A stretch of 64,000 bases of DNA. Origin: Candidatus Aminicenantes bacterium. GTDB lineage: Bacteria > Acidobacteriota > Aminicenantia > Aminicenantales > Saccharicenantaceae. Made by a program: the position numbers and the translations under genes. The DNA lies in the NCBI GenBank assembly GCA_963727095.1, contig CAVSEQ010000003.1, forward strand, positions 194,016 to 258,015, written 5' to 3'. Shown here piece after piece: positions 6,336-27,459 of the stretch; within the stretch, counting starts at the first letter, position 1, and each line of letters starts with the position of its first letter. Under the pieces are notes generated by a model. That model saw only the letters and a list, made by a program, of their open reading frames with translations. It made no database searches and was not told the origin of the DNA.

Positions 6336-6557
6336 ATGAAAGAAAAAGTCGAACAGGCGTTGGACAAGATCCGGCCCGCCCTCCAGGCCGACGGCGGAGA
6401 CGTGGAGCTCGTCGAAGTCACGGATGATGGCGTGGTCAAAGTCCGGCTGAAGGGCGCCTGCGGCGGTTGTCCCATGTCTCAATTGACCCTCAAGATGGGT
6501 ATCGAGCGGCTTCTGAAGAAAGACATTCCCGAGATCAAAACCGTCGAGGCCCTTTAA
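6336..6557 (+). CDS. nfuA: NifU-like / Nfu-type Fe-S cluster carrier domain protein
   Basis: GACGGCP CxxC motif of the NifU C-terminal domain, 73 aa. Confidence 0.8.
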   Translation: MKEKVEQALDKIRPALQADGGDVELVEVTDDGVVKVRLKGACGGCPMSQLTLKMGIERLLKKDIPEIKTVEAL

Positions 6558-6599
6558 CGAATCGTCTCCGCCCCATTCCAACAGGCGGAGGAGAATGTC

Positions 6600-7781
6600 A
6601 TGACGCAAGTCTATTTTGACCATATCGCGGCGACGCCTCTTCATCCCGAGGCGCTCAAGGCCATGCTTCCCTTCCTCCAGGACGACTTCGGTAACCCCCA
6701 GAGCCTTCATTCCGCAGGGCAGACGGCTGCCGCGGCTGTGGATGCGGCTCGGGAACAGGTGGCGCGGCTCATCGGCGCCCATGCGGACGAGATCTATTTC
6801 GTTTCAAGCGGCAGCGAGGCGAACAATTTTGCTGTCAAGGGGCTGGCCCAGGCTCATCAGGGGAAGGGAAAACACATCGTCGTCTCGGCCATCGAGCACC
6901 AGTCCATCCTCAATTCCGTTCGATGGCTTGAGAAACTCGGCTTCTCGGCGACCTTGGTCCCTGTGGACGGGACCGGCCTGGTCGACCCGGCCGAGGTTGA
7001 AAAAGCGTTGAGAAAAGAGACGATCCTCGTCTCCATCATGACGGCCAACGGTGAAATCGGGACAATCGAACCCACGGCCGAAATCGCCCGCATCTGCCGG
7101 GCTGCCGGCGTCCTCTTTCACACGGACGCGGTGGCGGCCGCGGGCAATATCCCGGTCAACGTCGCCGACTTGGGAGCGGATGCGCTAAGCCTGGCCGGAG
7201 ACCAGTTCTACGGTCCCAAGGGGTCGGCCGCGCTGTTCTTGAAAAAAGGGACGCGGATCACGCCGATGATCGACGGCGGAGTCCAGGAAAGCGGCCGGCG
7301 GGCCGGAACCGAGAACGTTCCCGCCATCGCCGGTCTGGGGGCCGCGGCGGGCGTCGCCATGGCAGAGATGGACGCCCGACGGGCGAAGCTCACGCCGCTC
7401 AGGGACCGGCTCATCGAGGAACTTCCTCAGGCCGTGGATCACGTCGTCCTCACGGGACACAGGACCCTGCGGTTGCCCCACCACGCGAGCTTCTGCGTCC
7501 GGTTTATCGAGGGAGAGGCCATGCTTCTCAGCCTGGACATGCAAGGCGTCCAGGCGTCCAGCGGGTCGGCATGCACTTCGAAGGCTCTGAAGGCCTCCCA
7601 CGTGCTCCTCGCCATGGGCCTGGATCATGCAACGGCCCAGGGGTCGCTCGTCTTCAGTCTCATCGAACGCGCAACGGGCGGCGACGTCGACCATCTCCTC
7701 GGCGTCTTTCCCGCGATCGTCGGCCGCCTGCGCAAGATGTCCCCGCTCTACACAGAGTATCTGAAGGAGAAAGCGCAATGA
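6600..7781 (+). CDS. nifS: Cysteine desulfurase (NifS/IscS family)
   Basis: Class V aminotransferase fold; active-site SSGSACTS; stop overlaps next start (ATGA). Confidence 0.9.
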   Translation: MTQVYFDHIAATPLHPEALKAMLPFLQDDFGNPQSLHSAGQTAAAAVDAAREQVARLIGAHADEIYFVSSGSEANNFAVKGLAQAHQGKGKHIVVSAIEHQSILNSVRWLEKLGFSATLVPVDGTGLVDPAEVEKALRKETILVSIMTANGEIGTIEPTAEIARICRAAGVLFHTDAVAAAGNIPVNVADLGADALSLAGDQFYGPKGSAALFLKKGTRITPMIDGGVQESGRRAGTENVPAIAGLGAAAGVAMAEMDARRAKLTPLRDRLIEELPQAVDHVVLTGHRTLRLPHHASFCVRFIEGEAMLLSLDMQGVQASSGSACTSKALKASHVLLAMGLDHATAQGSLVFSLIERATGGDVDHLLGVFPAIVGRLRKMSPLYTEYLKEKAQ

Positions 7782-8350
7782 TCTACAGCGATAAAGTCAT
7801 GGACCATTTCCAGAACCCCCGCAACGTCGGCGTGATCCCCGATGCGGACGGAATCGGCCAGGTCGGGAATCCCGTCTGCGGGGATATGATGACGTTTTAT
7901 ATCAAGGTAAAAGACGGCCGCCTCGCCGACGTCAAGTTCCAAACCTTCGGCTGCGGCGCCGCGATTGCGGTTTCGTCGATTGTCAGCGAAATGGCCATCG
8001 GAAAAACCCTCGATGAGGGGATGAAAATCACCAACGAGCTCGTGGCCGAGGAACTGGGCGGACTTCCGAAGAACAAGTTGCACTGCTCGAACCTCGGCGC
8101 CGACGCCCTCCACGCCGCGATTGATAATTACAGAAAGAAAGCCGCCTCCGAAGGGACGGGTGAAGCCCCCGGCGCCGACCTTCACGAGAACGAGGGCTGC
8201 GCGTGTCCCTATTGCGAAGGCCCGCTTGAAGAGGGCGGCGAGGAATATTGCAGTGCCTGCAAGATCGAGCTCGAGGAGTGCCCGTCCTGCGGCGGCATCA
8301 CCAATAAGAACGCCGATGCGTGCATGCACTGCGGCAAGCCGTTGAGCTGA
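7778..8350 (+). CDS. iscU: IscU/NifU-type Fe-S scaffold with C-terminal Cys-rich (8 Cys) extension
   Basis: NPxCGD, FGCGAAIA, HCSNLGADAL scaffold motifs; start ATG overlaps nifS stop; C-terminal CACPYCEG...YCSACK...CPSCGG...CMHCGKP. Confidence 0.85.
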   Translation: MIYSDKVMDHFQNPRNVGVIPDADGIGQVGNPVCGDMMTFYIKVKDGRLADVKFQTFGCGAAIAVSSIVSEMAIGKTLDEGMKITNELVAEELGGLPKNKLHCSNLGADALHAAIDNYRKKAASEGTGEAPGADLHENEGCACPYCEGPLEEGGEEYCSACKIELEECPSCGGITNKNADACMHCGKPLS

Positions 8351-8383
8351 CGCCGCGGCGGCGATGAAAGGGGGGAGGGTCCG

Positions 8384-8617
8384 ATGAAGGCCGACGTAAC
8401 GCTCGATTGTTACGGGCTCCTCTGCCCGATGCCCATCATCCAAACCGCGCAAACGATCAAACGCATGACGACCGGGCAGGTCCTCGAGATCCTGTCGACG
8501 GACAAGGGTATTCTCGCCGATATGCCGGCCTGGTGCCGAACGACCGGCCAGGAATTCCTGGGGTCCGAAGAGGAGAGCGACATCATCAAAGTGTACGTAA
8601 GGAAAAACCGGAACTGA
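8384..8617 (+). CDS. TusA-like sulfurtransferase
   Basis: CPxP motif (LLCPMPI), 77 aa two-layer alpha/beta size. Confidence 0.8.
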   Translation: MKADVTLDCYGLLCPMPIIQTAQTIKRMTTGQVLEILSTDKGILADMPAWCRTTGQEFLGSEEESDIIKVYVRKNRN

Positions 8618-8626
8618 ACCCTGAGA

Positions 8627-9541
8627 ATGCCTATGGATAACGCCGCTATTCTTAAACGCATCGCGGAGCTGAAACAGCGCGAAAACGCGGTTATTCTTGC
8701 CCATAATTATCAAGTGCCGGAGGTCCAGGACGCGGCCGATTTCGTCGGCGATTCCCTCGAATTGAGCCGCAAGGCGGCCGGGCTTGAGGCGGATGTCGTC
8801 GTCTTCTGCGGAGTTCGCTTCATGGCGGAAACGGCCGCCATCCTGTCTCCCGGGAAAAGAGTCGTCCTCGCGGCGCCGAACGCGGGATGCCCGATGGCGG
8901 ATATGATTACGGGCCGTGAGCTGCGCCTCTGGAAGGAGACATACCCCGGCCGCAAGGTCGTCTGCTACGTCAACACGAGCGCGGAAGTCAAGGCGGAGAG
9001 CGACGTCTGCTGCACATCCTCGAATGCGGTGGCGGTCGTCAACGCGCTCGGCGAGAAGGAAGTCCTCTTTGTGCCGGACAAGAACCTGGCGGCCTATGTG
9101 GCCCGCGAGACCGGATGTTCGATCATCGCTTGGGACGGATACTGTTTCGTCCACCATAAGTTCCGGCCCGCCGACATCCTCACGAAGAAGGCCCTCCATC
9201 CCGCGGCCCAGGTATGGGTGCATCCCGAATGTCCGATGGATGTCATCGACCTTGCGGACAAGGTCCTGTCCACCGGCAAGATGGTGGCGGAAGCCCGGGC
9301 CACCAAGGTTGCCGAAGTGATCGTGGGAACGGAGAAAGGGATCATATACCGCTTGGCCAAGGAGAACCCCGCCGTCCGGTTCTACCCGGCCAGGGATACG
9401 GCGCTCTGCGTCAATATGAAAATGACGTCACTGGACGACGTTGCGAGAGCGCTGGCCGGGGAAGTCCCGGCCGTGACGGTTCCCGATGATATCGCCGCGA
9501 GGGCGCGGCATGCGATTCAGGCCATGCTGGAAATCTCATGA
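8627..9541 (+). CDS. nadA: Quinolinate synthase A (alternative start at 8633)
   Basis: ILAHNYQ motif and three conserved Cys for the 4Fe-4S cluster. Confidence 0.9.
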   Translation: MPMDNAAILKRIAELKQRENAVILAHNYQVPEVQDAADFVGDSLELSRKAAGLEADVVVFCGVRFMAETAAILSPGKRVVLAAPNAGCPMADMITGRELRLWKETYPGRKVVCYVNTSAEVKAESDVCCTSSNAVAVVNALGEKEVLFVPDKNLAAYVARETGCSIIAWDGYCFVHHKFRPADILTKKALHPAAQVWVHPECPMDVIDLADKVLSTGKMVAEARATKVAEVIVGTEKGIIYRLAKENPAVRFYPARDTALCVNMKMTSLDDVARALAGEVPAVTVPDDIAARARHAIQAMLEIS

Positions 9542-9554
9542 GGAGCCGCCGATC

Positions 9555-10058
9555 ATGAAGAAAATGACCGAAGAAAGCCTCAAGACCGCCTACGCCGGCG
9601 AAAGCCAGGCCCACGTCCGTTATCTGGCCTTCGCGGAAAAGGCCGAAGCGGAGAACTACCCTAATGTCGCCCGTCTCTTCAGGGCCAACGCCTTCGCCGA
9701 ACAGATCCACGCGACCAATTACCTCAAAACCCTGGCGGGAATCGGGAACGCCGCCGATAATCTCGAGGCCGCCGTCGGCGGCGAGAATTACGAAGTGGAA
9801 GAGATGTACCCGGCGTTTTTGGCCGTTGCCGCTGCCCAGGGGGAGAAGACCGCGGAGATGTTCCTGAACGCGGCGCTCCAGGCCGAGAAAGTCCACCGCG
9901 GACTCTACCAGCACGCCAAGAAGATGGTCGAATCGGGCCAGGACTCGGCCGGCGGCCCGATCTATGTCTGCCCTATGTGCGGATTCACCATGGAGGGCGA
10001 TGCTCCCGACAAGTGTCCCATCTGCGGCAGAACGCGTAACACTTTTGTCGTGTTTTAG
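9555..10058 (+). CDS. rbr: Rubrerythrin (diiron domain + C-terminal rubredoxin-like CxxC...CxxC domain)
   Basis: MKKMTEESLKTAYAGESQAHVRY..., ExxH motifs, C-terminal CPMCG...CPICG; RBS AGGAG upstream of ATG 9555. Confidence 0.85.
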   Translation: MKKMTEESLKTAYAGESQAHVRYLAFAEKAEAENYPNVARLFRANAFAEQIHATNYLKTLAGIGNAADNLEAAVGGENYEVEEMYPAFLAVAAAQGEKTAEMFLNAALQAEKVHRGLYQHAKKMVESGQDSAGGPIYVCPMCGFTMEGDAPDKCPICGRTRNTFVVF

Positions 10059-10122
10059 ATAACGCCCGCGGCTCACGAAAGCCGCGCCGGTGGGTCGGAG
10101 CGCCGCGAGGAGGGAAGGGAAT

Positions 10123-10632
10123 ATGGGTATTGACCGGAATCTGAAACCCTGGCAAGTTCTGGAAGTCGCCGTCAAGTCCGAGATCGACGCGGAGTCGTTT
10201 TATACGCGGCTCCGGGGACGCGTCAAAAACGTCATCCTGATCGAAAAGTTGAGGTTTCTCGCCTTGGAAGAGGCGCACCACCGAACGATCATCGACCGGC
10301 TCTTGAAGCAAAGGTTCCCGGGACACGCAACGGACGTGCCTGAGAAATCCCTGATGCCGCCGATCGCCGCAGCCCTGGACGACCGGGCTTCGGTTCCTGA
10401 TCTTTTCGCCGCGGCGCTTCGCGCGGAGGAGGCGTCGGAGGCCTTTTATAAGGAGGCCCTTGAGCTGGCGGCGGACGAGGGAAGCCGGCGGATGCTCGCC
10501 TATCTCAGCCGTGTCGAACGCAGCCACCAAGCGATGATCAAATCCGAGATTGAGCTCATCGAAAAGTTCCCGGACTACTACGACGTCGAAGATTTTCACA
10601 TCGCCCAGGACCTTTTTCACGTCGGCCCGTGA
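10123..10632 (+). CDS. Ferritin-like / rubrerythrin-family diiron protein (no rubredoxin domain)
   Basis: E...ExxH...E...ExxH ligand pattern (LALEEAHHRT; LSRVERSHQAM); RBS AGGAGGGAAGGG. Confidence 0.6.
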   Translation: MGIDRNLKPWQVLEVAVKSEIDAESFYTRLRGRVKNVILIEKLRFLALEEAHHRTIIDRLLKQRFPGHATDVPEKSLMPPIAAALDDRASVPDLFAAALRAEEASEAFYKEALELAADEGSRRMLAYLSRVERSHQAMIKSEIELIEKFPDYYDVEDFHIAQDLFHVGP

Positions 10633-10711: not shown

Positions 10712-11827
10712 ATGAGACACGCCTGGCGCATCGGGAAGATCTTCGGGATCGAGATCGACGTCGATTCGAGCTGGCTGGTCATCTTTATCCTGATCAGCTG
10801 GTCGCTGGCCGGGTCTTATTTCCCCAGGGCGCATCCGCATTGGGGCGTCGCGCTCGACTGGGAGATGGGCGTTTTCACCAGCCTTATGGTTTTCGCTTCC
10901 GTCCTGCTCCACGAGCTGGCCCACTCGCTCGTGGCCATTCGTCAGGGCGAACATGTGAAGAACATCACGTTGTTCATCTTCGGGGGCGTCTCGCAAATCA
11001 CCGAAGAGCCGGAAAAGCCCCTGAAGGAGCTGGCCATGGCCATCGTTGGACCCCTTACGAGTCTGGTGCTGGCCGGCGTATTTTTCGGGCTGGCGACTCT
11101 CCTCCGGCCCGTGAGCGAACCCTTGCGGTCTGCTGCGGCGTACCTGGCCGTTATCAATTTGGCCCTTGGAGTGTTCAACCTTCTGCCCGGCTTTCCCATG
11201 GACGGAGGCCGGGTTTTCCGCTCGATCATCTGGCAGATCACCGGCAACCTCAAAAAGGCGACACGGGTGGCCGCGATGACCGGCGAAGTCTTCGCCTTTT
11301 TTCTGATCTTCATCGGCATTGTCCAATTCCTCCGGTCGAATTTCGGCGGCCTGTGGTTCGTCCTGATCGGATGGTTTCTCCATAGTTCCGCGCACCAGGC
11401 GTACAGCCAGGTCATGGTGAAGTCGGCGCTCAAGGGAGTCAAGGCCCGGGACCTCATGGATACGAATTTCGAAACCGTGCCGTCCGGGCTGAGCGTTCAA
11501 ACGCTGGTGGACGACTATATCCTGAAGAAGAGCGAGCGGGTCTTTCTCGTTGCCGACAGAGGCGAACTCGAGGGGATCGTTTGCCTGGAAGACGTCAAGG
11601 CCAAGGCCCGCGACGATTGGGGCAATTCCACGGTGGGGGATATCATGACCCCTAAGGACGCGATGGTCTCCGTGCCGCCCGATGCCGACGGGGTTCAGGT
11701 GCTGACGAGCATCACCACGAAGGACGTCCATCAGGTTCCCGTGATGGACAAGGGCAAGGTGGCGGGGATCATCTGCCGGGGCGATATCCTCAGGGTCTTG
11801 CAGACGCGGTCGGACCTCGGGGTCTAG
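10712..11827 (+). CDS. Site-2 protease family (M50) zinc metalloprotease with tandem CBS domains
   Basis: HExxH (LLHELAHSL), multiple TM helices, LPGFPMDGG motif, C-terminal CBS pair. Confidence 0.85.
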   Translation: MRHAWRIGKIFGIEIDVDSSWLVIFILISWSLAGSYFPRAHPHWGVALDWEMGVFTSLMVFASVLLHELAHSLVAIRQGEHVKNITLFIFGGVSQITEEPEKPLKELAMAIVGPLTSLVLAGVFFGLATLLRPVSEPLRSAAAYLAVINLALGVFNLLPGFPMDGGRVFRSIIWQITGNLKKATRVAAMTGEVFAFFLIFIGIVQFLRSNFGGLWFVLIGWFLHSSAHQAYSQVMVKSALKGVKARDLMDTNFETVPSGLSVQTLVDDYILKKSERVFLVADRGELEGIVCLEDVKAKARDDWGNSTVGDIMTPKDAMVSVPPDADGVQVLTSITTKDVHQVPVMDKGKVAGIICRGDILRVLQTRSDLGV

Positions 11828-11846: not shown

Positions 11847-12503
11847 ATGGACACTGAGCGCGCGCGAATCAAGGAGATGATCCGGCTCCTGCGGAAGCAT
11901 TATGTCCGGGGCCGAACGTCGCTTGAATTCTCCAACCCTCTTGAGATTCTGGTGGCGACGATCCTGGCGGCCCAGGCCACGGACAAGCGGGTCAACATGA
12001 TCACGCCGGCCCTCTTCAAGAAATACCCGACGGCGGCTCACTTCGCCAGGGCAAGCCGGGCGGAGCTCGAAAAGGAGATTCGTTCCACGGGATTTTTCCG
12101 GAACAAAACGAAGTCCATCATCGGCGCGGCGAAAACAATCGTCGCCGATTTCGGGGGCCGCGTGCCGGACACCATGGAGGCGCTTGTCACGCTCCCGGGT
12201 GTGGCCCGCAAAACCGCCAACATCGTGCTGTCATCGGGCTTCGGCAAGGCCGAGGGCATCGCCGTCGACACCCACGCCCGGCGCCTGTCCCAAAGATTGG
12301 GGTTAAGCAAAGAAAAAGATCCGGTGAAGATCGAGCGCGACCTGATGGCGGTGATTCCGAAAAGAGACTGGCTCGATTTCAACTATTTGCTGGTCGAGCA
12401 CGGCCGGGCCGTTTGCCAGGCGCGGAAACCCAAGTGTCCGGAATGTTTCCTGAACGGGCTGTGTCCCTCGGCCAACGTTTTCTACCCCGACCTCGATATC
12501 TGA
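11847..12503 (+). CDS. nth: Endonuclease III
   Basis: HhH-GPD fold, C-terminal Cx6Cx2Cx5C 4Fe-4S cluster loop (CQARKPKCPECFLNGLC). Confidence 0.9.
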   Translation: MDTERARIKEMIRLLRKHYVRGRTSLEFSNPLEILVATILAAQATDKRVNMITPALFKKYPTAAHFARASRAELEKEIRSTGFFRNKTKSIIGAAKTIVADFGGRVPDTMEALVTLPGVARKTANIVLSSGFGKAEGIAVDTHARRLSQRLGLSKEKDPVKIERDLMAVIPKRDWLDFNYLLVEHGRAVCQARKPKCPECFLNGLCPSANVFYPDLDI

Positions 12504-13516
12504 TGATGAAAGACGCCATGCTCTGGAGCCCCGGGGAGGGCGGCAAGGCCGTCTGCGCCCTCTGCAGCCACCGCTGCGTCATCGCCCCGTCGAAATACGG
12601 GGTATGCGGGGTCAGGCAAAACGTCGACGGGCGGCTCCAAACCTACGCCTACGGCGAAGTGATCGCCGCCCACGTCGACCCCATCGAGAAGAAGCCGCTC
12701 TACCATTTCTATCCGGGTTCCAAGGCGTTTTCCGTTGCCACCGTCGGATGCAACTTCCGGTGCTCCTTTTGCCAGAACTGGGAGATTTCCCAGCCGGGGC
12801 AAAAGGGCCGCGGGACGGGCGGAACCCGGCTCTCGCCGGAGGGGATCGTCCGCGAAGCCCGGGCCGCCGGCTGCCGGAGCGTTTCTTATACGTACACCGA
12901 ACCGACGATCTTTTTTGAGTACGCCTTCGACACGGCCAAGCTCGCCCACGACGCCGGTTTGGCGAATTCTTTCGTCACCAACGGATACATAACACGGGAA
13001 GCGCTCGAAATCATCCGGCCCTGGCTTGACGCCGCGAACGTCGATTTGAAGGCGTTTAAGGACGAAACCTATAAAAAAGTCTGCGGGGCTCGGCTGGCGC
13101 CCGTGCTCGACGCGATCGGCCTCATGAAGAGCATGGGGATCTGGGTCGAGGTCACGACCTTGGTCGTGCCAGGCCTGAATGACGGCGACGAGGAACTCAC
13201 GGCGATCGCCCGTTTTATCGCCGGCGTCGATGTCGATATGCCGTGGCACATCAGCCGGTTCCATCCGGACTTCCAGTTGACCGACACCCCCCCGACGCCC
13301 GTTGGAACGCTGCGCAGGGCGCTCGCCCTTGGGCAGGCCGAAGGGCTTCACCATTGTTATGTCGGCAACATCTCCGGCGAGTCGGAGGACACGCGGTGCC
13401 CGCATTGCGGGGAGGCCGTCATCTTGCGACAGGGGTTTTTCGTCACGAGGAACAAAATCGTCGGGTCCCGCTGTCCCGTCTGCGGCCAAAGCATCGCCGG
13501 GCGTTTTGCCGACTGA
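12503..13516 (+). CDS. amrS: AmmeMemoRadiSam-system type radical SAM enzyme (AmrS-like)
   Basis: N-terminal CALCSHRC...C cluster plus radical SAM CNFRCSFCQNWEIS; start overlaps nth stop (TGATGATG). Confidence 0.8.
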   Translation: MMKDAMLWSPGEGGKAVCALCSHRCVIAPSKYGVCGVRQNVDGRLQTYAYGEVIAAHVDPIEKKPLYHFYPGSKAFSVATVGCNFRCSFCQNWEISQPGQKGRGTGGTRLSPEGIVREARAAGCRSVSYTYTEPTIFFEYAFDTAKLAHDAGLANSFVTNGYITREALEIIRPWLDAANVDLKAFKDETYKKVCGARLAPVLDAIGLMKSMGIWVEVTTLVVPGLNDGDEELTAIARFIAGVDVDMPWHISRFHPDFQLTDTPPTPVGTLRRALALGQAEGLHHCYVGNISGESEDTRCPHCGEAVILRQGFFVTRNKIVGSRCPVCGQSIAGRFAD

Positions 13517-13526
13517 TCGTGCCCTC

Positions 13527-13949
13527 ATGGACGCCTATCGGATTCTTCCCCATACCGCCGATGCCAAGTTCGAGGCCAGCGGTCGGACGCTCGAAGAGGC
13601 GTTCGGCAACGCGGCCCTGGCCCTGACCTCTCTCATGTGGGACTGGGCTGAAATCGAGCTGGCGCGCTGCTTTCCCGTCCATGTCCACGGGCTCGACAGA
13701 GAGCAGCTCCTGGTCAAATTTCTCAGCGAGATTCTTTATCTGCTCGATACCCGCTGTTTTCTTTTGGGCGCGGTTTCCGGCCTGGTCATCAGGGAGGCCG
13801 GCGGCGGCCTGGACCTCGAGGCGGAGTTCCGGGGCGATTTCCAATCCAACCGCTATAAAATTCACGGCGCCGCCAAGGCTGTAACCTATAGTGAAATGAA
13901 AATCGAAGAAGGCGAAGGCTTCAGGATCCAAGTCGTTGTCGACGTCTGA
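13527..13949 (+). CDS. Archease (RtcB activator)
   Basis: LPHTADAKF...HG...VKAVTYSEMKIE conserved archease pattern, 140 aa; 10 nt after amrS. Confidence 0.8.
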   Translation: MDAYRILPHTADAKFEASGRTLEEAFGNAALALTSLMWDWAEIELARCFPVHVHGLDREQLLVKFLSEILYLLDTRCFLLGAVSGLVIREAGGGLDLEAEFRGDFQSNRYKIHGAAKAVTYSEMKIEEGEGFRIQVVVDV

Positions 13950-13957
13950 GGAATATC

Positions 13958-15378
13958 ATGGAACTGCGCAAGATCAACGAGATCACCTGGGAGATTCCCA
14001 AACAGGGGGACATGAACGTTCCGGCTCTCATCTATGCGTCCGAAAAGTTGTTGGCCGACGTGCGGCGTGACATGACCCTGACCCAGGCCCGGAACGTGGC
14101 CTGCCTGCCGGGAATCCAATGCATGTCATACGTCATGCCCGACGCGCACCAGGGGTACGGCTTTCCGATCGGCGGTGTCGCGGCCTTCGACCTGGACGAG
14201 GGTGTCATTTCGCCGGGCGGGGTCGGCTATGATATCAACTGCGGCGTCCGGCTGCTCCGGAGCGATTTCACGGACAAGGACGTCACGGAGAAACGCAAGG
14301 AGCTTTTGGCCGAAATTTTTCAAGAGGTTCCAGCCGGCGTGGGGAAAGGGGGCGTCACCAGGCTCACCCGAAAGGTCCTCGCGGACATTCTCGTCAAAGG
14401 CGCGGAATGGGCCGTGGAGAATGGGTACGGCACGCACGACGATCTCGAGCGGACCGAGGAATACGGCCGCATGAAGGACGCGGACCCGGCCGGACTATCC
14501 GAGCGCGCTTTGGAACGCGGCGTTCCCCAACTCGGCACGCTCGGCGCCGGCAACCATTTTCTCGAAATTCAAAAAGTCGTCGAGATTCAGGACAGGAACG
14601 CGGCCGACGCTTTCGGGATCACTTCGGTGGGTCAGATCCTGATCATGATCCATTGCGGCAGCCGCGGCCTTGGGCATCAGGTCGCGACGGACTTCATCGA
14701 ACTCATGGAAAACGCCTTTGGGACCAAGGGGCTGCCCGACCGCGAGCTGGTCAACGCGCCCTTTCGTTCCGCCCTCGGCCAGCGCTATTATCGTTCGATG
14801 TGCGGCGCGGTGAATTACGCGTTTGCCAATCGTCAAATGATTGCCCACTGGGTCCGCAACGTTTTCGCCAAGGTCATGGGAACGGCCGCCGGGATGGGGC
14901 AGATCTACGATGTCTGTCATAACGTCGCCAAGGTCGAGAAGCACGACTTGGGGGGCGCGCCGTGGATCTTTGCGTCCACCGCAAAGGCGCGACGCGCAGC
15001 TTCGGCCCGGGCCGGCCGGAGATCCCCGCCGCGTACAGGTCTATCGGCCAGCCGGTTCTGATTCCCGGCAGCATGGGGACGGCGTCCTATGTCCTGGTCG
15101 GCACCGCCGAGGCAGAACGGTTGAGCTTCAGCTCCACGGCCCACGGCGCGGGGCGGGTCATGTCCAGGCACGAAGCCATGCGGCGTTTCCGAGGGGAGCG
15201 CATCCGCGACGAGATGGCGGCCAGGGGGATCGAGCTCAAGGCGACGAGCTGGAAGGGCGTCGCCGAGGAAGCCGCCCCCGCCTATAAGGACGTGGACGAG
15301 GTCGTGCGGGTTTCCCACGAAGTCGGCCTCGGCCGGATCGTGGCGCGGCTTGTCCCCGTCGGCGTCATGAAAGGATAG
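13958..15378 (+). CDS. rtcB: RNA-splicing ligase RtcB, interrupted by an apparent -1 frameshift near 14950-14960 (poly-G run); N-part frame 2 to ~14955, C-part frame 1 from ~14962
   Basis: ORFs 13958..15061 and 14962..15378 are both RtcB ([24 protein letters not shown] | [23 protein letters not shown]); reading one extra G gives the expected ...[21 protein letters not shown]... Confidence 0.85.
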
Positions 15379-15548
15379 GCCAATCGAGCCCCTTTCCCTG
15401 CCGGAGCTTCTCGGGGCATTCCCTCCGGCCGGGAGCGGACTCTCGGGAGCGACCAACACGGGTGAGGCGGAGTGACGCGGAGCCTCACCTGTGAGAAATA
15501 TCTTGAACAGGTGTTGCCTCTTGGCCTCGCCGGCGGGAAATATATGAC

Positions 15549-17150
15549 TTGAGGCTTGGAACCGACTCCTCGGTGGATTTGCGTCAGCGGGAGGCCGCTC
15601 TTTGCCCCGTTGACTTTTCGGACGGCCGTTCATATAAAGGATGCATGCGTGTCGTGCTGGCCGGATACAATGTGGACAGCTCCGTCCTCGAGGAACTAAA
15701 GAAGAACTCGCCGCCGCGCGACGATGTGACGCCGGAAACGCTCTCGGCGTCATACGCCCGCATCTCGAGAGACCCCCGTCCTGCCGACGAACTGAGGGCC
15801 GCGGCCCGGTCTGAGGTCGAACGGGCCCGCCGATCGAATGCGGCCATTATTTTTAAAATGGGCCATCATTCAGTGGCCGAGCATGCCGTTTTTAATTTCG
15901 ACATCATCGGGGTCAGCCGGCTGGCCATCGAGGAAATCGAACGATTCCGGCTCTGTTCTTTCACGGAAAAGTCGCAGCGCTATATCACGCTTGGAAGCGA
16001 TTTCGTGGTCCCCGCGGAGATCACGCGCGCCGGCAAGGCTAAGGTTTTCGTCGCGACCGTCAAGGCCCAGAACGCCCTTTATCACCGTTTGTTCGAAAAG
16101 CTCAAGCCTTTCTTTTTTGAGACGCACCGCGCGGAAGCGGCCGATCCGAGGAACCGGGCAATCCTCGAAGGCTGGGCCAAAGAAGACGCGCGCTACATCG
16201 TGAGCCTGGCGACGGAAGGCCAGCTCGGCATGACCATCAACGCCCGCAACCTCGAGCTTCTCATCCGGCGCTTTGCCGGCAGGAATAGCGACGAAATACG
16301 GGAGATCAGCGGCCGGATCGCCTCCTTGGCAAGGGAGGTGGCCCCTTCCATCATCCTGTTCACCGAGGCCTCTGAATTCGATGCCAAGACTCCCCTCGGC
16401 ACAGGGGCCGCCGTGTCCGCTCTTCTCCCGGCGGGCGGCTTTGCCCGCACCAGCCGGGCCTCTGCCCGCACGCCCGTGGCCCTGGCCGGCTGCACACCCG
16501 ATGGGGATGCGCAAATCCTCGCCGCCCTGCTCCACACGGCCTCCCATCTGAGCTACGATCAGTGCCTCCGAAGGGTGAAGAGGGCATCCTCGGCCGGCCG
16601 GCGCAACCTCGCCCGGAGCGCCTTCCGGCATATGGAGTTCTACGACTTTCCTCTTCGAGAATTCGAATACGCCGGCTTCCTGTTCGACCTCGTGGTATCG
16701 GCGTCGTGCTTTGCCCAGCTCAAGCGTCACCGGATGGCGACGCTGACCTGTCAAGGCTATGATCCCGCCCTGGGCGTCACTGTGCCGCCCTCGATCGAAG
16801 CCGTCGGCGCCGCGTCCGAATTCCGAGACTTGATCGGCCGCACGGATGACGTCCACGGCAGGCTCGCGAAAGAGGTCGGCCCGGCCGCCGATTATGTGCT
16901 GACCAACGCCCACCGGCGCCGGGTTCTCCTTGGAGTTAACGTGCGCGAGCTCTATCACATCTCCCGGCTCAGAGAGGATGCGACCGCGCAATGGGAGATC
17001 CGGAAGCTCGCGGCCGGGATGACGCGGCTGGCAAAAAAACGGATGCCGCTGGCCTGCCTGCTCCTCGGCGGAAAGGACGCCTATCCGGAAATCTACAAAA
17101 AGGTCTTCGGACGTCCGCCGCAAATGAAGCCGCCGAAGATGTTCAGCTGA
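15549..17150 (+). CDS. thyX: Flavin-dependent thymidylate synthase ThyX, tandem two-domain form (start possibly ATG 15645)
   Basis: Domain 1 SRLAIEEIERFRLCSFTEKSQRY (ThyX SQRY motif, RHR degraded to RFR); domain 2 LKRHRMATLTCQGY (RHR retained, SQRY degraded). Confidence 0.6.
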   Translation: MRLGTDSSVDLRQREAALCPVDFSDGRSYKGCMRVVLAGYNVDSSVLEELKKNSPPRDDVTPETLSASYARISRDPRPADELRAAARSEVERARRSNAAIIFKMGHHSVAEHAVFNFDIIGVSRLAIEEIERFRLCSFTEKSQRYITLGSDFVVPAEITRAGKAKVFVATVKAQNALYHRLFEKLKPFFFETHRAEAADPRNRAILEGWAKEDARYIVSLATEGQLGMTINARNLELLIRRFAGRNSDEIREISGRIASLAREVAPSIILFTEASEFDAKTPLGTGAAVSALLPAGGFARTSRASARTPVALAGCTPDGDAQILAALLHTASHLSYDQCLRRVKRASSAGRRNLARSAFRHMEFYDFPLREFEYAGFLFDLVVSASCFAQLKRHRMATLTCQGYDPALGVTVPPSIEAVGAASEFRDLIGRTDDVHGRLAKEVGPAADYVLTNAHRRRVLLGVNVRELYHISRLREDATAQWEIRKLAAGMTRLAKKRMPLACLLLGGKDAYPEIYKKVFGRPPQMKPPKMFS

Positions 17151-25450: not shown

Positions 25451-25524
25451 GCCAGCGTAGCTCAGTTAGGTAGAGCGGCTGATTTGTAATCAGCGGGTCA
25501 GGGGTTCGAATCCCTTCGCTGGCT
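25451..25524 (+). tRNA. thrU: tRNA-Thr (anticodon TGT)
   Basis: Cloverleaf: acceptor GCCAGCG/CGCTGGC, anticodon loop TTTGTAA, T-loop TTCGAAT. Confidence 0.85.
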
Positions 25525-25628
25525 TAAAAGCGGCGATAGAACGCGCTATCTGGCAACGGAATATCCTGACCCTGACGGAGGGATGCTTATCCTGGTCGAA
25601 CGTGGGCATCGAAAGTGATTCATGGCTT

Positions 25629-25711
25629 GGGCAGGTTCCAGAGTGGCCAAATGGGGCGGGCTGTAAACCCGCTGCGGAAACGCTTCGGAGGTTCGAATCC
25701 TTCCCTGCCCA
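25629..25711 (+). tRNA. tyrU: tRNA-Tyr (anticodon GTA), long variable arm
   Basis: Acceptor GGGCAGG/CCTGCCC, anticodon loop CTGTAAA, long variable arm, T-loop TTCGAAT. Confidence 0.85.
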
Positions 25712-25715
25712 CTTC

Positions 25716-25789
<74 letters not shown>

Positions 25790-25807
25790 CTTGTTCGAGC
25801 ATGTTGG

Positions 25808-25880
25808 GCCCAAGTAGCTCAGTTGGCAGAGCACGTCCTTGGTAAGGACGGGGTCACCAGTTCAATTCTGGTCTTGGGCT
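25808..25880 (+). tRNA. thrT: tRNA-Thr (anticodon GGT)
   Basis: Acceptor GCCCAAG/CTTGGGC, anticodon loop TTGGTAA. Confidence 0.85.
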
Positions 25881-25933
25881 TTCGTTTTAGACGGGGATGG
25901 TCCTCAGAGATAGGGCGCCGGGAGGTATGAAGG

Positions 25934-27133
<1,200 letters not shown>

Positions 27134-27211
27134 GCGAGGAGGCCCGGGACCCGGTCGCGGCGGCCTTCAGGGATAGACGAAGGACAAGGAGTTAGCGAGG
27201 GAAGGTTAACG

Positions 27212-27361
27212 ATGCGCGATATCATCACGCTCCAGTGCGCCGACTGCAAACGTCGGAACTACTCAACGACTCGGAACAAAAAGAAGCAGACGGACAAACT
27301 TGAGATCAAAAAGTATTGTTCGTTCTGCCGGAAACACACCGTGCATAAGGAAGTCAAATAA
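27212..27361 (+). CDS. rpmG: 50S ribosomal protein L33 (zinc-binding C4 form, 49 aa)
   Basis: Translation [49 protein letters not shown]. Confidence 0.85.
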
Positions 27362-27383
27362 GCGCCGGCCATGAGGGACAGAC

Positions 27384-27459
<76 letters not shown>

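Follow-up and report, generated by a model that had tools for sequence, protein, structure and literature searches.

The radical S-adenosylmethionine (SAM) enzyme AmrS belongs with AMMECR1 and Memo to a triad that is conserved from archaea to humans and whose eukaryotic relatives AMMECR1 and MEMO1 are linked to disease. No biochemical function for the triad was found in the searchable literature, and any reproducible genomic association is therefore a lead. The RNA ligase RtcB is encoded in several kinds of operon, of which rsr–Y RNA–rtcBA is one bacterial type. Another is the rtcBA–rtcR operon of Escherichia coli (PMC5175333), and an archease–rtcB operon of tRNA splicing and RNA repair has been described by Desai, Cheng, Bingman, Phillips and Raines (2014; PMC3973293) and by Desai et al. 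(2015; PMC4604427). Here we analyse a 64-kb stretch (64,000 nucleotides (nt); hereafter the window) of contig CAVSEQ010000003.1 from a Candidatus Aminicenantes bacterium, in which the endonuclease III gene nth and amrS directly precede archease and rtcB. An earlier note on this DNA had proposed that the radical SAM enzyme acts with RtcB in RNA or DNA repair or ligation. The adjacency is confirmed and, in so far as other genomes show it again, exceeds chance, and the tie between AmrS and RtcB looks real yet optional; a direct partnership of the two proteins is possible but unproven. The reading that we favour, and to which we give about an even chance, is that nth/amrS and archease/rtcB form two tight two-gene modules, which lie next to each other in a conserved string of housekeeping genes and are expressed together.

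The four genes close an uninterrupted co-directional string that runs from nadA to rtcB on the plus strand of the window at 8.6–15.4 kb (Table 1). The TGA stop codon of nth (12501–12503) overlaps the ATG start codon of amrS (12503–12505) inside cTGATGATG, amrS is separated from archease by 10 nt, and archease lies directly upstream of rtcB on the same strand with a spacer of 8 nt. Because these two spacers leave no room for signals, co-transcription is very probable. Inspection of the sequence and profile searches bore out the earlier note on the gene order, the TGATG overlap, both spacers, the CNFRCSFCQNW motif and the N-terminal cysteines of AmrS. Nth combines a HhH-GPD domain with a C-terminal 4Fe-4S loop, exceeds its equivalog cut-off in the profile search and is 75% identical to its orthologue in L001, an Aminicenantes locus obtained by a separate look-up. 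The match of AmrS to TIGR04337 spans profile positions 4–334 of 349, and AmrS is identical to a public protein (P0001); the best database hits likewise point to Candidatus Aminicenantes.

Recurrence of this arrangement was followed from both of its ends. The AmrS-centred analysis comprised 83 loci, namely 80 GTDB loci from species-representative genomes of many phyla with AmrS relatives at 50–67% identity, together with the window, L001 and a further locus, L002; at least 600 nt of sequence lay downstream of amrS in 70 of the 80 GTDB loci. The RtcB-centred sample was independent and held 80 metagenome loci, 72 of them non-Aminicenantes. The neighbour families tested were archease, RtcB, Nth, Memo and AMMECR1. 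Archease and then rtcB lie downstream of amrS on the same strand in the Aminicenantes loci L003–L006 and in L001, and the amrS–archease–rtcB trio is present in all Aminicenantes loci with sufficient sequence except L007, where nth–amrS is followed by an opposite-strand gene and no archease occurs in the 1.85 kb downstream of amrS. Gene order is retained within the Aminicenantes down to identities of 60–65% for AmrS and about 42% for archease. From the RtcB side, an upstream AmrS was confined to loci whose RtcB shares 70% or more identity with the Aminicenantes protein (L083, L084, L086, L087, L094, L100 and L146).

The junctions within the trio are not all alike. Both the nth/amrS and the archease/rtcB junctions are tight throughout the Aminicenantes loci, and unrelated genes stand between amrS and archease in about half of them. 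At four loci the intervening gene encodes a protein of about 525 residues with a signal peptide and no Pfam match (L005, 11135–12703; L085, 27–1592; L087, 3915–5507; L100, 3383–4966); in L086 it is pncB, encoding nicotinate phosphoribosyltransferase (NAPRTase), and amrS and archease are 675 nt apart in L003 and 315 nt apart in L006. The coupling of nth to amrS is at least as conserved as that of amrS to archease. According to the earlier note, the adjacency would be incidental if AmrS homologues showed no recurrent linkage to archease and rtcB and the AMMECR1 and Memo partners turned up elsewhere; in the gene-neighbourhood comparison the linkage recurs, so the proposal is not refuted on that ground. 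The proposal that the radical SAM enzyme works with RtcB is supported in part, as the trio recurs in the Aminicenantes and in four Nitrospirota loci but is missing from all 72 non-Aminicenantes RtcB loci. Since recurrence is limited, AmrS is not fused to its neighbours and genes are inserted at the junction, co-expression is likely and joint action of AmrS with RtcB is a minority hypothesis.

In the two-module reading, the four genes would be translated from one polycistronic mRNA. The first module would be nth/amrS, coupled by the stop/start overlap, with ribosomes passing from nth to amrS by termination–reinitiation at TGATG; the second would be archease/rtcB, a known RNA-ligase pair. Nth would carry out the known task of its family, the excision of oxidized pyrimidines from DNA, and RtcB would seal RNA 3′-phosphate or 2′,3′-cyclic-phosphate ends to 5′-OH ends, aided by archease in guanylylation. 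AmrS presumably cleaves SAM to form a 5′-deoxyadenosyl radical that abstracts hydrogen from a bulky substrate, and presumably still partners AMMECR1 and Memo encoded elsewhere in the genome; it would not be an integral component of the RtcB ligase system. Co-expression could plausibly serve a response to damage and to redox or iron–sulfur (Fe-S) stress in an anaerobe. Such a shared programme is plausible because the genes upstream point to Fe-S and redox functions, both Nth and AmrS are Fe-S enzymes, and the active site of human RtcB is sensitive to oxidation (PMC12263435).

Several observations weigh against keeping AmrS outside the ligase system, and they argue for the leading alternative, in which AmrS is a genuine functional partner of archease–RtcB, possibly also of Nth, and the string is a nucleic-acid repair operon. 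In the variants of this explanation, AmrS would chemically reverse or alter damage to an RNA (or DNA) base or end ahead of resealing of the strand by RtcB, or would post-translationally modify or activate RtcB or archease in the manner of the pyruvate formate-lyase activase PflA. We hold this alternative to be possible but doubtful. Its main strength is the occurrence of the trio in a second phylum. Among the Nitrospirota, the full trio is found in L016, L033 and L047, and L014 has amrS–archease and then the contig end. The genes are contiguous or overlap (in L047, archease begins at 11022, ahead of the amrS end at 11044), the flanks are wholly different between L016, L033/L014 and L047, and RtcB is 66–74% identical within the clade. 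Retention of the trio despite reshuffled flanks looks like selection on an operon, and operon partners are often functional partners. The proteins of the Aminicenantes, Nitrospirota and Desulfobacterota are equidistant (about 50% identity for RtcB, 30% for archease and 56% for AmrS), and many unlinked lineages lie between the two RtcB-linked AmrS clades in a neighbour-joining tree. That an amrS–archease–rtcB cassette moved recently between the Aminicenantes and the Nitrospirota by horizontal transfer is therefore excluded, as the proteins are as distant from each other as from those of the Desulfobacterota, which lack the adjacency; the trio either is ancient and has frequently been lost or arose twice. 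By a rough estimate, the chance of an immediate same-strand archease beside amrS is about 1 in 6000 per genome, and about 0.01–0.05 such events would be expected over the roughly 75 other loci.

Further points on the same side come from the wider neighbourhoods. In four Desulfobacterota loci, rtcB–archease lies 6–9 kb from amrS on the opposite strand, and in three of them (L050, L063 and L075) amrS follows a gene for a DEAD-box RNA helicase and then one for a Methyltransf_11 methyltransferase, about 1–2.5 kb upstream. The nth gene directly adjoins amrS in all Aminicenantes loci, in Omnitrophota L008 and, in reversed order, in Desulfacinum L051, and a PolX repair polymerase is encoded just past rtcB in L001, L003 and L087. 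The modelled PflA-like open barrel would suit a macromolecular substrate. Contexts that join Memo, AMMECR1 and a radical SAM enzyme have reportedly been tied to nucleotide-base modification.

The case against a functional partnership is that the link is restricted to a few lineages and is a general property of neither family. AmrS was found within 6 kb of RtcB at 0 of the 72 non-Aminicenantes RtcB loci; upstream sequence of 600 nt or more was available for 57 of these, and 28 have archease adjacent. None of the five tested families occurs within 10 kb, in the flanks examined, at 62 of the 83 AmrS-centred loci, and neither archease nor RtcB was found near amrS in the nine other Nitrospirota loci or in any of the sampled Omnitrophota, Chloroflexi, Planctomycetes and archaeal loci; nth near amrS in L008 and L015 provides the sole exceptions among these otherwise unlinked groups. 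The commonest neighbour of amrS is instead a class I methyltransferase (Methyltransf_11), encoded upstream on the same strand at 15 loci and immediately upstream at most of them. Other members of the Aminicenantes string also stand beside amrS in distant lineages: nadA (7775–8686) ends exactly where amrS starts in the Thermoplasmatales archaeal locus L058, and an M50/CBS-like gene (about 8450–9777) lies about 220 nt upstream of amrS in L049 and L059, a Phycisphaerae-type locus, so recurrence is not specific to RtcB. Archease, RtcB and Nth (HhH-GPD) are fused to AmrS in none of 37 long homologues, unrelated genes interrupt the amrS–archease junction, and RtcB-linked AmrS is indistinguishable from unlinked AmrS. 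The fuller claim, that AmrS as a radical SAM enzyme repairs or modifies RNA (or nucleic acids) in one pathway with archease–RtcB and Nth, is on balance unlikely.

An opposite view, that the genes are neighbours through incidental synteny and share neither regulation nor function, would make the string an inheritance of the Aminicenantes and the Nitrospirota trio a coincidence or the remnant of an old neighbourhood. We consider it improbable. The string does bring together genes for NAD synthesis, detoxification of peroxide, a membrane protease, DNA repair, ligation of RNA and thymidylate (dTMP) synthesis and keeps its synteny as one block, the majority of AmrS and of RtcB loci show no link, and both the insertions at the amrS–archease junction and the opposite-strand gene behind nth–amrS in L007 are what unconnected neighbours might show. 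On the other hand, the start/stop overlap and the 8–10-nt spacers offer no space for internal promoters or terminators, gene order persists in the Aminicenantes despite the divergence of AmrS and archease, and a trio with overlapping genes in three flank contexts of the Nitrospirota is a poor fit to neutral drift of gene order. Neofunctionalization of AmrS in the RtcB-linked lineages was rejected for lack of signature residues, as no alignment position is common to both RtcB-linked AmrS clades yet rare among the remaining AmrS proteins.

As a protein, AmrS is unexceptional within the TIGR04337 orthologous group. The radical SAM cysteines are C83, C87 and C90, within the CNFRCSFCQNW motif; across 68 homologues, the N-terminal C18, C21, C25 and C35 and the C-terminal C299, C302 and C324 are invariant, and C327 is conserved in at least 90%. 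An AlphaFold2 model built with these 68 homologues has a predicted local distance difference test score (pLDDT) of 96.6 and a predicted template-modelling score (pTM) of 0.94. A search of the PDB returned no solved structure for any member of the AmrS family. The nearest solved structure to the model is PflA (3c8f; Foldseek E = 7e-15, template-modelling score (TM) 0.81 over PflA, root-mean-square deviation (rmsd) 2.5 Å, 18% identity), and PflA is also the sole family matched by the AmrS sequence in the PDB (E = 1e-5). As judged from the model, the similarity is at the level of the fold only: AmrS scores 54.6 bits against the PFLA profile TIGR02493, for which the cut-off is 231.75, and falls far below every cut-off of the glycyl-radical activase, MoaA and viperin models. 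No glycyl-radical enzyme was found among the open reading frames (ORFs) around the cluster (9–20 kb). Because the partial barrel of PflA accommodates a protein substrate, AmrS probably acts on a bulky substrate, which may be protein or nucleic acid.

The earlier note had also pointed out that AMMECR1 and Memo are absent locally, and had treated this as noteworthy. The absence itself held: a scan of the 64-kb window for the RGCIG-type (LRGCIG) AMMECR1 motif gave nothing, and hidden Markov models (HMMs) for AMMECR1 and for Memo, each made from 10 domains, gave no match in it at E ≤ 10. As a clue to function it is uninformative, since 78 of 80 loci of the subfamily are likewise without either gene beside amrS; absence is the rule for this AmrS subfamily and nothing special to the window. 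The two exceptions, within 10 kb of amrS, are L036 with an adjacent Memo gene and L079 with AMMECR1 2.3 kb away. Insensitive detection was rejected as the source of this low count, which did not change when the HMMs were rebuilt from 10 domains each and the threshold relaxed to E ≤ 1, and the NCBIfam model TIGR04337 does not require adjacent AMMECR1 or Memo. The classical tie of AmrS to Memo and AMMECR1 is real at the level of the family: among the 37 long homologues, fusions to Memo and to AMMECR1 number 10 each. Seven of the 37 contain inteins (intein splicing and LAGLIDADG domains); the long homologues inspected included P0132, P0145, P0174, P0230 and P0266. Other fusions join AmrS to FMN_bind and Fer4_5, to DsbD_2 membrane modules or to flavodoxin/FAD/NAD reductase modules, and these reductase and electron-transfer modules may be built-in electron donors.

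The rtcB gene is split over two frames in the assembly, which the earlier note had overlooked. Searched with the intact 473-residue RtcB of L001, tblastn aligned residues 1–334 to 13958–14959 at 78% identity and residues 331–473 to 14947–15375 at 80% identity. The frame changes around a run of six G residues (G6; 14950–14955), one of only 16 G/C runs of at least 6 nt in the window. The sequence KHDLGG(G/R)[13 protein letters not shown] ([19 protein letters not shown]), collinear with RtcB of L001, is recovered if a single base is added or a −1 slip occurs. All catalytic motifs of RtcB are encoded but divided between the two frames, with HGAGR, which bears the guanylylated histidine, in the 3′ part; the public gene call for this rtcB is a truncated product of 367 residues. 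Among 18 genes compared with L001, rtcB is the only split one, and its orthologues are intact in L001, L003, L004 and L016. The 1-nt frameshift most probably stems from an error in the assembly or from a slip that occurred very recently. Although G GGG GGC formally fits the X XXY YYZ heptamer, a programmed −1 frameshift was rejected: a conserved one is excluded because the relatives have intact genes without the G run, and it is also discounted since split rtcB frames occur in other assemblies (L033, L100 and L162). On the strength of the 78–80% identity to intact orthologues and of what is known of the family (PMC3973293), the protein would have archease-stimulated RNA 3′-phosphate/5′-OH ligase activity.

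The surroundings of the cluster are conserved along with it. In the Aminicenantes the full string reads nifU–iscS–iscU–nadA–two rubrerythrin genes–M50/CBS–nth–amrS–archease–rtcB, then thyX; its nadA-to-rtcB section is syntenic in L001 at 63–80% protein identity and is found also in L003–L006, and the position of the M50/CBS gene is identical in L001, L003 and L006. The double-length form of thyX is kept downstream of rtcB across the Aminicenantes. Between rtcB and thyX, L001 (12885–15624, minus strand), L003 and L087 carry a DUF4440 gene and the gene for the PolX/PHP DNA repair polymerase on the opposite strand; both are absent from the window, where only a 170-nt gap (15379–15548) with a hairpin separates the two genes. 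This hairpin may be where the transcription unit ends; as it has no T-tract, it was not called by the terminator scan, and promoter and terminator scans of the window were otherwise uninformative. An Rfam search of the window at gathering thresholds found no RNA family member in the cluster, and a structured RNA, Y RNA or riboswitch there was rejected, as the search returned solely five distant tRNA genes (Thr, Tyr, Gly, Thr and Trp; 25451–27459, plus strand), which lie about 10 kb downstream and are unrelated.

Table 1 Features of the nth–amrS–archease–rtcB cluster and its surroundings (window coordinates).
Feature	Position	Strand	Details
nifU, iscS, iscU (NifU_N), nadA, rubrerythrin, rubrerythrin-like	6336–10632	+	Fe-S/redox theme; co-directional; syntenic in L001
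nadA	8627–9541	+	Upstream member of co-directional string
Rubrerythrin gene	9555–10058	+	Upstream member of co-directional string
Second rubrerythrin-like gene	10123–10632	+	Upstream member of co-directional string
M50 metalloprotease gene with CBS domain	10712–11827	+	PF02163, PF00571; 19 nt upstream of nth
nth, endonuclease III, 218 aa	11847–12503	+	TIGR01083 248.5 bits (cut-off 211.7); PF00730, PF00633, PF10576
amrS, AmmeMemoRadiSam-type radical SAM enzyme, 337 aa	12503–13516	+	TIGR04337 341.3 bits (cut-off 220)
archease, 140 aa	13527–13949	+	PF01951 E = 7.7e-34, full length
rtcB overall	start 13958, stop 15378	+	PF01139; split over two frames
rtcB 5′ part, residues 1–334 of 473-aa RtcB	13958–14959	+	PF01139 positions 1–296; open frame continues out of register to stop at 15061
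rtcB frameshift interval	14947–14959	+	13 nt, with G6 run 14950–14955
rtcB 3′ part, residues 331–473, −1 frame relative to 5′ part	14947–15378	+	PF01139 positions 293–426; ORF 14962–15378
8-bp GC-rich hairpin (ggtgaggc...gcctcacc)	15461–15489	+	Read from sequence, in 170-nt gap after rtcB (15379–15548)
thyX, double-length, two Thy1-domain stretches, 533-aa ORF (500 aa in L001)	15549–17150	+	Downstream of rtcB

For the triad, a conserved AmrS–RtcB operon would direct experiments to RNA or other nucleic-acid substrates, a prospect that gains some support from the second phylum and is bounded by the narrow spread of the link. Should AmrS indeed act in RNA or nucleic-acid repair, the trio operon would be the first genomic handle on the biochemical function of AMMECR1–Memo–AmrS. 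The window itself, with rtcB broken in the assembly, offers a modest lead on an orphan enzyme family.

Last, the cluster can be placed beside the systems described so far. Like the archease–rtcB operon, it has archease just ahead of rtcB, in the same direction and with 8 nt between them, with both genes encoding full-length family members; its RtcB carries the motifs DINCG, GNHF, HCGSRG, CHN and HGAGR and is of the archaeal-like, archease-dependent type of about 473 residues. Unlike that operon, it has nth and amrS joined 5′ of the pair, and its rtcB is frameshifted in the assembly. The E. coli rtcBA–rtcR and the rsr–Y RNA–rtcBA arrangements share with it an RtcB gene in an operon with accessory genes and a presumed action on stress-damaged RNA, but the window has no RtcA, RtcR, Ro or Y RNA, the accessories being archease, a radical SAM enzyme and a DNA glycosylase. 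With the AmmeMemoRadiSam system (TIGR04335 for AMMECR1, TIGR04336 for Memo and TIGR04337) it shares an AmrS that has all three cysteine clusters and scores above the cut-off; it differs in having no AMMECR1 or Memo gene within 64 kb, and the neighbours in this subfamily are nth, archease–rtcB or a class I methyltransferase gene. Compared with PflA (3c8f and 3cb8) and other glycyl-radical-enzyme activases, AmrS has the same placement of CxxxCxxC in what is predicted to be a partial barrel, but it is only 17–18% identical to PflA and is extended at its N-terminus by a four-cysteine module (about 60 residues) and at its C-terminus by a CxxC...CxxC ribbon (about 40 residues). No paper combining AmrS or AMMECR1 with RtcB or archease was present in the literature searched, and within that literature the extension of the archease–rtcB operon by amrS in two phyla appears to be new. 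The extension is seen only in the Aminicenantes and one Nitrospirota clade. Together, these comparisons describe the window cluster as a lineage-restricted variant of a known operon, in which all four genes are ordinary members of their families.

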